A DNA stretch of 46,533 bases from Eledone cirrhosa (lineage: Eukaryota), in contig CAXHJY010000975.1 of the NCBI GenBank assembly GCA_964016885.1, positions 1 to 46,533 of the forward strand, written 5' to 3'. Within the stretch, counting starts at the first letter, position 1, and each line of letters starts with the position of its first letter. The translations under genes and the position numbers were made by a program. Below the pieces are notes generated by a model that was given only the letters and a program-made list of their open reading frames with translations, was not told the DNA's origin and did no database searches. Below are positions 4,158-39,549 of this stretch, piece after piece.

Positions 4158-4201
4158 ATATAATAAATAAATAACAAAGAACGCTTATAGCATATGCATA
4201 T

Positions 4202-4260
4202 CTTTACTTGCTAACATTGTTTCATCCACACTATAAGTGGGGACTCATCAGAGCATAAAG
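4202..4260 (-). ncRNA. Minimal type I hammerhead ribozyme (PLE unit 1)
   Basis: Reverse complement of the motif at 23975-24032, with one extra C in stem II. Confidence 0.88.
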
Positions 4261-5133
4261 GTTAAATTACATACCATACAAGCAATAACAAATCCAAGAC
4301 ATTGAAGAATGAAAGGTAATAATAGACTATAGAGGATAAGAATAAAAAGTAAATAAAAATAAAAGTGAAAATAAAAATAAAAATAAAAATAAAATGAAAA
4401 TAAGGGGTGCTATCTGTCACAATTGGGCGGTGTGCTGTCAACATATAGTTACATACAAGCATACACATGGATAAGAGAACAGACAAGAGTAGACACATGG
4501 ATAAGAGAACAGACAAGAGTAGATAAGATAATGGGATTAGGTAAGAGTAGGTAAAAAATAGGTAAAAAAATAGGTAAAAAATAGGTAAAAAATAGGTAAA
4601 AAACAGACTTATAATATATATAAAAAGAAATACAAAGAAATACATAACAAACTTACATATAAAATATAAAATATAGGGTAAGGAATGAGATAAAATAATA
4701 TACAATTAAAAATTAAAAAATTATATACATAGAACATAATATAGTATAATCGTAAAATAAGATAAAATAAGGTAAACTAAAATCAAATAACAAAGACTAA
4801 ATTAAAATTAAAATCAAATGTGTAATTATAATTATATGTATAATTAAATGTAATTAAATGTAATTAAATAAATAAATAAATAAATAAATAAATAAATAAA
4901 TAAAAAAATATAAAAATAATAAAATAAATAAAAATTAAAAATTAAAAATTAAAAATTAAATAAATAAATAAAATTTAAATTTAAATTTAAAATTTTAAAA
5001 TTAAAATCCAAATTTAAATATAAATAAATAAATAAATAAATAAATGGAGTCAAGTAAGTAAATAAATAAAATTAGATAACATGAAATGAAATAAAATAAA
5101 ATGAAATAAAATGAAATAAAGTAAATTGAATAT

Positions 5134-5481
5134 ATCAGGGGCCCACGAAGGCACTAAATGTCACAGTTATGTGTATCACTTGACCAATTCTTCAAAATAC
5201 ATTTCCTGAAAACATCAGGGGCCCACGAAGGCACTAAGTGTCACAGTCACCAGTATCACTTGACCATTGCAAGGCAATGGAGGCGACCCAGGTTGGGCAG
5301 TCACGAAAGTTCACTCGAAAGTCATGGGTGTACATTCACACAGTTGAGCGGTGGGGTAATCACAAACGGTTCACACACCAATTTTTAAAAAAATATATAT
5401 TTCTTGAGAACATCAGGGGCCCACGAAGGCGCTAAGTGTCACAGTCACCAGTATCACTCGAGCGGTGGGGTAATCACAAAC
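5134..5481. repeat. Three ~45-bp modules (ATCAGGGGCCCACGAAGGC-CTAA-TGTCACAG...TATCACT) plus two GAGCGGTGGGGTAATCACAAAC in the PLE non-coding region
   Basis: Modules start near 5134, 5215 and 5412; the same block recurs in every unit (near 10237, 15331, 20440) and inverted at 22750-23100. Confidence 0.85.
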
Positions 5482-6611
5482 CGGTTCAACACAGGCAGGA
5501 GTCAAATGGTCAGAAAGGTGCATCAAAAGAGTTAGAAGAATTCACATGCAAGCGTTAGGTTAAAGCAGGCAGGTACAGTTGTAGCGCATGCAAAATACAA
5601 AATATAAAAGCCATTAAGTCACCGCGTTGGGACATCACAAGATTATACACATCAATATGTTCAGTACGTATATGCACGTACACACATCATATGCACATGC
5701 AGAGACGGTATACATATATATATATATATATTTTTTAATATATATACACACAGACACATATAACCACCTACACCCATACACATATAAATGTATACACGGG
5801 CACACACGCACACACGCACAGAGCGTAGGATACCCGGGTTAAAGTCGATATTAAATACGATATTAAATACAATATTAAATATTAAACACCGAAATACCAC
5901 ATTAGATCAGACCCACCACCACAGGTAATATATTCAAACAAATACATACGATGAGATGTATTAAATACAGTTGAAATCCTACGGAGATATTCATGTCTGC
6001 ACGTGCCATTGACCGATTCGAGTGTACACAGACCGTTAGTAACTACGGAGGGCCATCGGGGCCAAAACGTTACTTTCGGGATCATAAAAACGACCGTCAA
6101 TATAAGGAAGGCCGATCGTGCTAGAAAGACTACAACCCCGGGTAAGAGTTCCCAGAGGTCAGCCTATAGATCTTGAACCACAGAATATGAGGGCAACACA
6201 TATATGCGCCGCATATCCACTGCTTACGGCAGGATGGCTCGGGTCCGTCACAGTTACAGGCTAAATTTCTACTAGTGCAGCCTAAATCACAGTATAACGC
6301 TTTACATAAATACATTACATCACAACTCATGCGCATACAGAGGTACAAATCAACAAGATATACGTCAGGATAGGTCCACCAATGCACTAATGGTGGGTAG
6401 GCCAGCGTGGATGGGTTACATCCACTGTACCAAACAGGGGTGCTTATTAACATACACTCCCCTGCACACCCCAATATCAAGATCAATATCCTCCCACAGG
6501 CATACGTATACATTCACAGACTCGTATACATAGACGACCAATATTAGGAGACAGTTACACACAGTCAGAGACAGTTACACAAGACAGCCCAACTGGAGGA
6601 ATAAGGACGTG

Positions 6612-9099
6612 CTAGCTAACAGGTTTAAAGTAGAAGAAAGAGCTTAATATTCGGTGGGGGCAAGAGAAAAAATTTCAGACTTTCTATTTAGTAGAGGGCA
6701 TTTAGCAAATATAATAGAGTGGGATTCGGCAAGGCACAGGTTGCATACTCTACTATGAGGAGTATATGGATGGGACTTAGCAACCTGCCGCCAAGTAAGT
6801 GTGTAGGGTGTCCGTGCATTTTTTAAATTATGGACGCACGCTGCCAAGGAGGTGGAGTTCTTCAGTTTATTATGTCTAAAAGTGCATTGATGAGAGTTAA
6901 ACCTGGTCTTAAAGGGGGTGGAAGTTGATCCTATATAGGTCATAGTGGACGCCGTAGTTACCACATCACACGCATAAACTATGTTTCTAACAAGGCAGAA
7001 ACCATTCAGGGGGCAGCCCAAAGCCCTTCTACAGTTACAACCTCTGGTGATGCTATTCTCAGAAAGATCACCACCAGTGTCACTGCCCACTCTATCCACT
7101 ACCGTGTTTTCCCCTAGGCTTAGGTTGTCCAGGCCTTCCTTTATTTTCTTATTATTAGTAATGGCCAGATGAGAGGCTAGATTTTGGGTTGTAGAATATG
7201 AAAGTTTAACAACATTCTTATTGAGGATAGAGTGGTACCTATTACCAGGAGGGAAGTTCCGTTCTAGCACAGAGAAGAAGGCCCTAGGAATATTTGTAGC
7301 CACTTCAGAATTAAAAGGGGGGTTGAAGTATGTATTCAATCTTCTTCTATTCTTTTTATTCTTTCTATTTCCATCAGTATTATTAGCATTATTATTTCTA
7401 CGGTTCCTATGCTCACCTAGTCCATGCGGGGAGCTGCGAGGCCCACCATTGCTGTTACTTATACCAATGGTGCCCTGCTGGTTCATTCCACCAGCATCTA
7501 GAAACCTCCCGTTCATGACACCCCTATTGTTATTACTTAGACTAATGGTGCCCTGCTGTTTCATTCCACCGGCATTTAGAACCCTCCGATTCGCGACACC
7601 TCGATTACCAATGGACATATTATGTGTTATAACAACACTGGTAGAGCCACTATTACGACCATTATTTCCCTGGGTGTAATACAATTTGTCCCTAAAGCCG
7701 GATCTAGCTAAGGCGTCGTTATAGTAATCAGCCTGCGAGTCAAACGCCTCCTCACTATGTGAGAGTGAACTTATTCTATTAGATACGCCCTTCAGTATAC
7801 CGCTGATGACAGACCTAGGGTGGTTGGAGTAGTATTCACGTAAGTCAGCAATTCATTGGGCTTATGGTACGGTGTGTAACGTATGGTTATCCAGGTCCAG
7901 TGTAACATCTAGGAAGTTCACAGTTCTATCATTTACATCCATTGTAATGGATAGGTTAAAAGTTTTAAAAAATCTATGCAGCTTTTTCCTAATGCGCTCT
8001 ATATTATACTTACTAGTATCTATGGAGAGTAGGGCGTCATCTCGGTACAACCCACCCCTAAGGAAAGGGAAGTTACTATGCAGTTCATTGAGGAGGTATA
8101 GTCCAACCAAGTCAGTGACTTGAGCAGAGTCACTCGACCCCATAGTGATGTCAAAATTATCAGGTGTGTTTTTTCTCGTCCATAGATTATCCTCAAACAT
8201 GATAATGGTTTTACGTGCAGCGAGAACAATATCTATCTGTGGCCTAGTAATTGCTCCCCTCCGCATGGCTAGGATGAGAGCCTTATTGAGGATAATAGGA
8301 GATATAGATGTATAATAAGCATCAATATCAAATTGGATGAATTTTAGTGAGTCACGACCACAATCAGTAGAGAACCATGTAATGACCTCACTAGTGTTAC
8401 CCCAAAGCTCAAGGAAAGTTTTTTCTCTAACCAGGGGAATAACGCTATCCAAGATTCCCTTACTAATAATCCCCAGGTCAGACTTGGAGGGGCAGATAAG
8501 CCTAACCGAGGGTCTGCTAATAAAATCTTCCTTGTGGTCCTTGAGGGTGAATCTAGGCTGCCTGGGGTAATAAGGCTGAGTGTGTTTATCCAGACCTAAT
8601 TTTATCACTATGTTATACCCCTCCAGATTAATATTATCTAAATTACTCTGCGTTGTTTTTTTGTAGTTCCTATGTAGTTCATTATAAATGAAGCCTCGAT
8701 AGGTTTTATAATCCATACTATATAAGTTTTTAGTTTTGTCAGAGGGGACCAGAATGGATTTATTATCCTTAAAGTCCCTAACGATTGAACTTAGTTTACT
8801 CTGAAATTTATTGGTACGTCTAGATTTTTTATATCTAATATTCCTAACAAGGGATAATAGCTCACTTTCGAAGTTATCCAACAGGCTATTATGCGGGGGG
8901 CTCCTATAGGTCTTAAATCCATAATTATTAAAACTACGCCTCTCCTCAGGGCCATCATACCTCTTATCAAAGTGGAACGCACGCCACCGAACACGTTTTA
9001 CGAATGAGTTTATGCTAGTTATCAATGATTTCTCATACGAGATTTTAGGGGGGGGGGAATATTCTTCAAGGAAATGGGTAAGTATGTCTTTGTTAGCAT
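6612..9099 (-). pseudogene. PLE RT-GIY-YIG ORF, frameshifted copy (unit 1)
   Basis: Same sequence as 16808-19297 but split by single-base indels near 9050, 7880, 7833 and 6665; these could be sequencing errors. Confidence 0.85.
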
Positions 9100-39042: not shown

Positions 39043-39157
39043 TAGGAGGTGAGTTTTATTGTAGTACAATAAAGCAATGCAGATATCGGATAAGAAGCAC
39101 TCTACAGTTTGTGGGACTGGAGTATGCATAATATAAGATCAAAAGATGGTTAAAGGA

Positions 39158-39243
39158 GTTCAATATATTTTATTATGCGCATTTCAAAAACAAACATCAT
39201 CAAATAATAATATTTGTGTTTTCATCAGATAAAACAGGAGAAC
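39158..39243 (-). ncRNA. Type I hammerhead ribozyme (left arm)
   Basis: Mirror of 39434-39519. Confidence 0.85.
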
Positions 39244-39433
39244 ATGATATGAAGGCTAAAAAAACACTTGTTGATAGTGCAGTTTTAAATCAACATATGA
39301 AAAGTGGTTTTAGATTGATGTGTGATATTGGGAAAAATATTTTTCCCAATATCACACATCAATCTAAAACCACTTTTCATATGTTGATTTAAAACTGCAC
39401 TATCAACAAGTGTTTTTTTAGCCTTCATATCAT

Positions 39434-39519
39434 GTTCTCCTGTTTTATCTGATGAAAACACAAATATTATTATTTGATGATGTTTGTTTTTGAAATGCGC
39501 ATAATAAAATATATTGAAC
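39434..39519 (+). ncRNA. Type I hammerhead ribozyme (right arm)
   Basis: Stem I TGTTTTAT/ATAAAATA plus GTTC/GAAC; CTGATGA 39449-39455; stem II 39456-39471/39476-39491 (one C-U mismatch, some G-U pairs); GAAA 39492-39495; T-GCGC-A; ATA triplet with predicted cut after 39503. Confidence 0.87.
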
Positions 39520-39549
39520 TCCTTTAACCATCTTTTGATCTTATATTAT

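Follow-up and report, generated by a model that had tools for sequence, protein, structure and literature searches.

The window analysed here is the whole of an unplaced 46.5-kb contig (CAXHJY010000975.1, 46,533 nucleotides) from the 3.0-Gb genome of Eledone cirrhosa and consists mostly of degenerate (TA)n with nested insertions. Four of these insertions are considered, three of them Penelope-like elements (PLEs): A (4158-24170), C (29376-30464), B (30549-33704) and D (39040-39549). By self-BLAST and inspection of the sequence, the left arm of each lies on the minus strand and the right arm on the plus strand, both 3' ends running into (TA)n, and the head-to-head layout with two outward 3' ends given in a preliminary description of the window is thereby confirmed for all four. 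In each insertion one 3' end lies at a short and the other at a long distance from a predicted hammerhead cut or an equivalent position. This short/long geometry is real, it is strictly paired throughout the genome sample described below, and each of the two end sites is followed by a copy of a small bulged stem.

Insertion A is a Hydra-type PLE array with its short-end arm on the minus strand (4158 to ~22749) and its long-end arm on the plus strand (22748-24170). An intact open reading frame (ORF) of 829 aa (16811..19297, minus strand) encodes a reverse transcriptase (RT) plus a GIY-YIG-type region at the C terminus and carries the DKT, CxCX5C, CxxC and CxH motifs. A type I hammerhead was recognized by a scripted pattern and pairing search on the plus strand (23979..24025, predicted cut after 24021), and further cuts are predicted on the minus strand at 4213, 9317, 14420 and 19515. 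The array duplicates 8.6 kb (4158-12775 and 14365-22979) with the head-to-head junction included: a 232-nt inverted piece on the plus strand (12544..12775), lying within this direct repeat, repeats the 22748/22749 junction and substitutes for 230 nt inside one ORF, whose frame stays open (844 aa). The duplicated junction could be a re-copied junction, a product of recombination or a misassembly.

Insertion B (30549..33704) consists of two 5'-truncated arms of an autonomous Hydra-type family, with the short end on the left and the long end on the right and with predicted hammerhead cuts at 30612 (minus strand) and 33503 (plus strand); stem II of its hammerhead (about 33370-33503) is ~120 nt long. 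The two arms of insertion D (39040..39549) are joined at -169, with the long end on the left, the short end on the right and predicted cuts at 39174 (minus strand) and 39503 (plus strand). Insertion C (29376..30464) is built from a non-coding 548-nt monomer and has its long end on the left (minus strand) and its short end on the right (plus strand). Hammerhead cores with stem I and stem III pairing are readable in A, B and D. The hammerhead site formerly assigned to all four insertions is missing from C, which has no CUGANGA core on either strand and no match to an Rfam ribozyme family in a focused scan; the hammerhead of A was likewise left unscored by Rfam in the focused scan. An Rfam scan of the whole window returned microRNA-like matches to TA repeats alone among the 150 of 410 matches listed. 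The distances from the predicted cut to the short and long ends amount to 55/149 nt for A, 64/~201 nt for B and 46/134-137 nt for D, close to the earlier figures, the small differences reflecting TA microhomology. For C, 45-46/124-128 nt were obtained from the equivalent position, which is arbitrary because C lacks a hammerhead core, so that only the short-long difference of ~80 nt is meaningful.

The four insertions had been regarded as unrelated, which does not hold for A, B and D. Longer genomic copies identified B and D as 5'-truncated copies of autonomous families, whose ORFs are 45% (B) and 41% (D) identical to the A protein. All three ORFs span ~800-830 aa and contain YRDD, SDKT (DKG modified to DKT) and a C-terminal IVY/LIY...YIG/YFG region. 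The CxCX5C linker reads CNCRRALGC, CNCRNKANC and CNCRIKNKC in A, B and D, around the conserved E and N CxxC appears as CNLC or CRLC and CxH as CPH, CNH or CLH across the three proteins, and the RWK position is RWR in A and B and RWT in D, the published Hydra-1_Crog protein likewise having RWR. Pfam gave no match for the A ORF. The units measure 5095 (A), 7045 (B) and 3917 nt (D), above the <3 kb tendency of the Hydra clade, which is not a strict criterion; they exceed 3 kb because of long low-complexity untranslated regions. Judged by the DKT, CxCX5C, CxxC and CxH motifs, the predicted hammerhead and the (TA)n target, A, B and D are related Hydra-clade PLEs. Asn-rich low-complexity linkers separate the RT from the endonuclease (EN) at differing positions in the three proteins, and the linker region of A contains a 78-nt tandem repeat (7448-7600). 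C appears to be a non-coding 548-nt passenger that uses the PLE machinery, its tandem monomers numbering up to 3-4 per arm. The type I hammerhead expected in every unit of a non-LTR (long terminal repeat) retrozyme is absent from C, and no C-type sequence occurred among the hammerhead families found.

The end positions of all four families were surveyed by five genome searches, of which the best 40 candidates each out of 1624, 69, 1091, 53 and 1173 were taken. The first search was biased to long ends and the other four queries stopped short of the short end; with 80 fetched stretches included, the sample comprised 120 segments and 955,537 bases. Across this census the end positions of A-D are bimodal, as the preliminary description had anticipated. 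Automatic pairing gave 91 short+long insertions out of 91 (A 24, B 22, C 13, D 32) with neither a short+short nor a long+long case, and together with two pairs added by hand all 93 of the 93 paired insertions are head-to-head with one short and one long end. Clean junctions were available for 73 pairs, 69 of them distinct (p ~2e-21 for these 69 under a 50:50 null); the remaining 20 of the 93, less certain, were set aside, 12 of them for gaps >40 nt (low-complexity sequence or nested insertions) and the others for failed chaining. The short side is atypical in two insertions (+36 on C320 and +18 on C5), each partnered by a long end. Five pairs seen in other families (F, G twice, J and M) were short+long as well. 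Inversion as such is not universal: automatic pairing left 56 ends unpaired, some merely from gaps between fetched stretches, and 24 of 41 unpaired arm ends inspected by eye (13 short, 11 long) belong to one-armed copies, which reach (TA)n directly or after at most ~50 nt. Since two-armed copies were likelier to enter the sample, the inverted share is overestimated.

That the inversions are artefacts of fold-back reads or of the assembly might be suspected from the window itself, which is a whole unplaced contig and whose A array holds a duplicated junction. The 69 distinct junctions, however, lie mostly on chromosome-size contigs, the arms are unequal and so are the fixed ends, and the same layout occurs in two metagenome contigs (L255 and L257). 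Furthermore, short raw reads (three DNA runs, comprising restriction-site-associated DNA (RAD) reads with the same species label) carry loose TA ends at both sites, namely at the short site (19468; 41 reads, run X12) and near the long site (19377; 4 reads, run X11). An artefact is thus hardly credible. A DNA transposon with terminal inverted repeats, or a miniature inverted-repeat transposable element, was likewise rejected, the ends being unequal (short/long) and 69 of 73 junctions distinct.

The ends had been described as TA-rich spots measured from the ribozyme. Instead they track a bulged stem of the form RCUC...U(U/A/C)GAGY, which is present twice per element, with the end sites 2-6 nt upstream of it. 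RCUC follows all 8 end sites of A-D (offsets 2-6), C included, and can pair with a downstream GAGY, the bulge before GAGY being usually 2 nt. In A the first stem (GCUC-UGUC/GACA-UU-GAGC; 24081..24102, plus strand) begins 4 nt past the short end site, and the second (19347..19363, minus strand), present only in the internal tandem units, 2 nt past the long end site. The first stems of B (ACUC-UGUAU/AUACA-UU-GAGU with a 61-nt insert; 33572..33652, plus strand) and D (ACUC-CAGU/ACUG-UA-GAGU; 39099..39123, minus strand) also start 4 nt past the short end sites, and two weaker stems of C (~29923-29934 and 30001-30019, plus strand) each lie 5 nt past an end site. A covariance model built from the alignment of 28 stems described below matched the stems of A and D in the window and further copies upstream of the ORFs in held-out loci.

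Nine held-out families of the same genome were examined for the motif, four of which pass a strict test (chance 0.002-0.011 per family), while E, H and N pass a relaxed test only. E misses the strict test because its short end was placed 4 nt early, H reads UCUC, and the partner in N lies beyond the allowed span, the short/long assignment of N being uncertain. Families J and R fail, and PLEs as a whole consequently do not share the motif. The two end sites of R are ~65 nt apart and lack an RCUC stem. J (C3:228245356-228247707, L202; C28:89690640, L182) has short and long ends with a different stem, GGUUUC/GAAAC, spanning the tail; start signals may be clade-specific. The ORF of J contains YVDD and LPVLD and has no match to the A protein at E<1e-8; from the motif we take J to be probably another, non-Hydra PLE clade.

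Among distant relatives, 63 metagenome loci were collected (best segments mostly 33-41% identical) and 16 distinct hammerhead sites were tested. At least one stem lies within 200 nt of the cut at 13 of the 16 sites (0.55 expected) and two stems at 8 of them (0.013 expected). Upstream of the ORF match, at least one stem was found in 24 of 28 loci and two in 15 of 28, several loci being clipped by contig ends. In L233, L236, L248, L255, L257 and L262 the terminal copies stop 2-7 nt short of a stem; in L255 and L257 the left end is short and inverted, the right end longer and direct. In an alignment of 28 stems 93% of the cells are paired and 28 cells carry double changes, including compensatory swaps between G-C and A-U and between C-G and U-A; the covariation of 0.332 was reached by none of 500 shuffles. 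In the stem alignment (L231-L271) RCUCU or RCUUU usually comes after the GAGY element, and this conserved 3' tail might pair alternatively with GAG. The stem can also be read in published consensus sequences, twice at the start of Hydra-1_Ajap and once at the 3' ends of Hydra-2_Ajap and Hydra-2_Amil. The start of the published Hydra-1_Crog has GCCC/GGGC, which could be a compensatory change in a core that is otherwise invariant. From the conservation and position of the stem, it is likely the signal for where paired RTs start copying one RNA.

The arms and their junctions bear on how the two ends come together. The hammerhead cut is crossed by 106 of the 118 arms of A, B and D and none of the 118 ends within 5 nt of it; the candidate that arms stop at the cut was therefore rejected, and the template must have been uncleaved, as proposed earlier, or religated. 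Among the 73 clean pairs the short arm reaches further upstream in 30 and the long arm in 24, and both end within 15 nt of each other in 19. As neither arm is consistently the longer one, these counts favor priming from the two sides of the break, again in line with the preliminary description; the candidate that the short arm always reaches further was discarded on the same counts. The 73 junctions show overlaps of 1-7 nt (45), blunt joints (7), inserts (15) or overlaps >7 nt (6). The 5' ends of the arms cluster in D between -123 and -129 (20 of 56) and in B between -139 and -141 (13 of 24), pile-ups that may correspond to a structural block or to the 5' end of a linear RNA. The 5' edge of stem I (-140) is where many B arms stop, some of them with short templated repeats at the joint.

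One explanation of the inverted layout has a single start, after which the cDNA or RNA folds back and primes itself; the endonuclease then trims or resolves the product at the short site, and the stems are cut signals at the DNA level. Palindromic junctions (-125/-125 three times in D; -169/-169 in the window) and short fold-backs at the 5' ends of a few one-armed copies are in keeping with it, and it follows published proposals of self-priming (Arkhipova 2013, PMC3846280) and of 'EN-mediated resolution' (Craig 2021, PMC8557442). A fold-back of the long arm, however, cannot outreach that arm upstream, as the short arm does in 30 of 73 pairs (e.g. -1804 vs +99), and a fold-back of the short arm is unable to create the tail. 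Furthermore, the second stem lies outside every long end and is thus absent from the cDNA that would have to be cut. Because fold-back yields neither a longer short arm nor a tail from a short start, self-priming is not the general route; in its simple form it is ruled out as such by the 30 copies with the longer short arm, and with trimming or resolution included we regard it as highly unlikely.

Alternatively, a hammerhead-made circle could be reverse transcribed in a rolling fashion from both break ends, the ribozyme setting the geometry. The many arms that cross the cut would suit a circle, as would those longer than two units (A in the window, D on C3, and C with its 3-4 monomers). The ends nevertheless follow the stems and not the cut (short ends lie 34-64 nt from the cut in most families), C has no core, the pile-ups at -125 (D) and -140 (B) are not predicted, and hammerhead cleavage was dispensable in vitro (PMC11167929). 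A circle that sets the geometry is accordingly very improbable, and a circular template is not needed for it; a circle does not conflict with the stems and may hold for the long arrays.

Two RTs that dock on the two stems of one RNA, each extending one side of the (TA)n break, probably account for the observations. One RNA with two RTs is the simplest explanation because there is one like signal per start and there are never two like ends. The second stem, being beyond every long end, is never contained in the terminal copy and must act before or during priming. We infer that the stems are protein-binding start signals and that the GIY-YIG domains cut both (TA)n strands. In such a scheme the GIY-YIG domains would cut both strands of (TA)n, and an RT dimer would load on both stems of a single RNA. 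Each 3' DNA end would anneal via several TA bases immediately 5' of its stem. Both cDNAs would be extended in the direction of the 5' end of the RNA, where the long cDNA would either displace the short one or follow it. Microhomology would next join the two cDNA 3' ends, and mutual copying would give the head-to-head form, whereas the failure of one primer would leave a one-armed copy. The 'tail' would be the spacing between the two stems (~55-145 nt here). The wider proposal, that in Hydra-clade PLEs a conserved and duplicated RNA docking stem positions two RTs on one RNA for programmed asymmetric priming of both break ends and that any two-stem RNA, such as C, can be written into (TA)n, has in our judgement slightly better than even chances. 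That the motif is bound, and that the dimer sits on a single RNA, are the parts that we infer.

The alleles of the arms allow a comparison with a scheme in which two RNAs are held in one complex, for example via the palindromic stem III or the semi-palindromic GAGYRCUC, each RNA giving one arm and an asymmetry of the protein assigning the stems. Minor alleles are shared by both arms of an insertion in 57 of 70 cases, and of the variants private to one insertion 42 occur in both arms and 48 in one arm only. The allele sharing fits one template but would also fit gene conversion or a single source locus. Stem III of A, B and D is a palindrome or close to one, 13 of 70 alleles differ between the arms of one insertion, and no strand displacement would be needed where the long arm overtakes the short one (24 of 73), all of which speak for two RNAs. 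On the other hand, a symmetric dimer does not account for the lack of any short+short or long+long insertion, C pairs strictly (13 of 13) without a hammerhead core, private variants are often present in both arms (the 42 above), and some pairs stop at a near-identical internal point off the hot spots, e.g. -1377/-1382. Two RNAs are thus unlikely.

Several points weigh against the reading of two RTs docked on duplicated stems of one RNA. The stems of C are weak variants, and the covariance model missed the stems of both B and C. The minimum-energy fold of A does not contain both stems as drawn, and the second stem of D is absent from its fold as well. In families J and R, short and long ends are paired or alternate although the RCUC/GAGY motif is missing. 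The stem alignment was selected by motif and its three central pairs are invariant, and because of this the covariation result is biased in favor of the structure; the role proposed for the stem in Hydra elements is read from position and conservation alone. The alleles and private variants that sit in one arm only (13 of 70 and 48, respectively) do not speak for a common template, and the concordance of the arms could also be due to gene conversion or to a single source locus. If the first stem acted as a roadblock, a surplus of very short long-type arms would be expected; the surplus seen was not significant (11 vs 3, p=0.057) even at the best cut-off chosen post hoc and is suggestive only. 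Finally, the start sites on the top and the bottom strand did not differ in the study of Frangieh et al. (PMC11167929).

Further insertions surround the four elements in the window. Two 98% identical pieces of an APE-type long interspersed nuclear element (1-989 and 34626-35620) were found, one of them at the contig start, and this element has an open frame of 1045 aa (34676-37813, minus strand) with RVT_1 and Exo_endo_phos domains. By eye, 33870-34092 (minus strand) appears to be a one-armed piece of the 467-nt hammerhead family R, whose 5' end lies ~11 nt past the predicted cut, unlike the arms of A, B and D. Two similar ~215-nt inserts in (TA)n (39900-40120 and 43704-43918) are presumably similar to short interspersed nuclear elements, and two short unique stretches occur within (TA)n at 27720-27900 and 28010-28250. 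Elsewhere in the same genome an inverted array of 482-nt units with at least 7 units per arm is located at C11:14995500-15002100 (L217).

Strict pairing combined with a motif at fixed distance turns the question of PLE insertion into one of point-mutation experiments, and the motif would give the cis signal for a clade of telomerase-related RTs; in telomerase, an RNA element likewise sets the template. If true, hard-wired double priming would account for the inverted pseudo-long terminal repeat (pLTR) of PLEs as well as for their one-sided tail. Should the motif be sufficient, it would define which non-coding RNAs hitch-hike on PLE enzymes and provide an exact annotation rule for the ends of Hydra elements.

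The nearest mechanism among known systems is the twin priming of L1, which Ostertag and Kazazian are said to have described in 2001: one RNA is reportedly primed by both cut target ends, and the resulting inversion has a microhomology joint, with the second primer at variable internal sites and with non-overlapping arms. In the present elements both starts are fixed and marked by a motif, and the arms overlap.

Non-LTR retrozymes of metazoa (bioRxiv 10.64898/2026.07.22.740005) are non-coding tandem monomers like C, which differs in lacking the hammerhead core while keeping two stem-like signals and strict end pairing; end geometry is not treated in the available portion of that paper. In the Penelope insertions of Adineta vaga the inverted pLTRs stand head-to-head, the junctions are palindromic, one pLTR may carry a tail and the linker has Asn-rich inserts (PMC3846280); the Asn-rich linkers of A, B and D resemble these N-rich inserts. 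That paper accounts for the layout by self-priming on an antisense template; as a general route, this is excluded by the arm lengths found here.

For the Poseidon element PAc of Anolis, the accessible text of Frangieh 2024 (PMC11167929) reports that in vitro both strands are cut and extended and that the tail is delimited by two internal RT starts; the RNA stays uncleaved, the hammerhead is dispensable, the targets AT-rich, a dimer predicted and sequence 3' of the starts required, the later steps of insertion being unvalidated. The likeness to our elements extends to both-strand extension, two starts bounding a tail, uncleaved RNA, AT-rich targets and a predicted dimer. PAc belongs to another clade, however, its starts lie in an AC-rich stem-loop inside the ORF, and that text reports neither a duplicated cis signal nor a rule of one start per side.

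As described by Craig 2021 (PMC8557442), EN+ PLEs of the Hydra clade combine a C-terminal GIY-YIG with DKT, CxCX5C, CxxC, CxH and RWK motifs, a canonical hammerhead and (TA)n targets. PLE insertions in general comprise partial tandems, an inverted 5'-truncated copy and an often one-sided tail, and the origin of tandem or inverted insertions with a one-sided tail is given there as an open question. In comparison with those elements the tail is ~55-145 nt instead of 30-40, pairing is strict instead of occasional and the units measure 3.9-7 kb instead of <3 kb. The duplicated RCUC/GAGY stem goes unmentioned in the available text of that paper, though it is readable in its consensus sequences. In the literature searched no account of a duplicated stem or of counted strict pairing was met, and older papers or supplements could hold one. 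The short/long pairing had been put forward earlier as a possibly undescribed rule; earlier publications (Craig 2021, Frangieh 2024) already contain the inverted layout, the tail on one side and the two starts of reverse transcription, whereas the rule of strict pairing and the duplicated stem at the start sites appear to be new descriptions.

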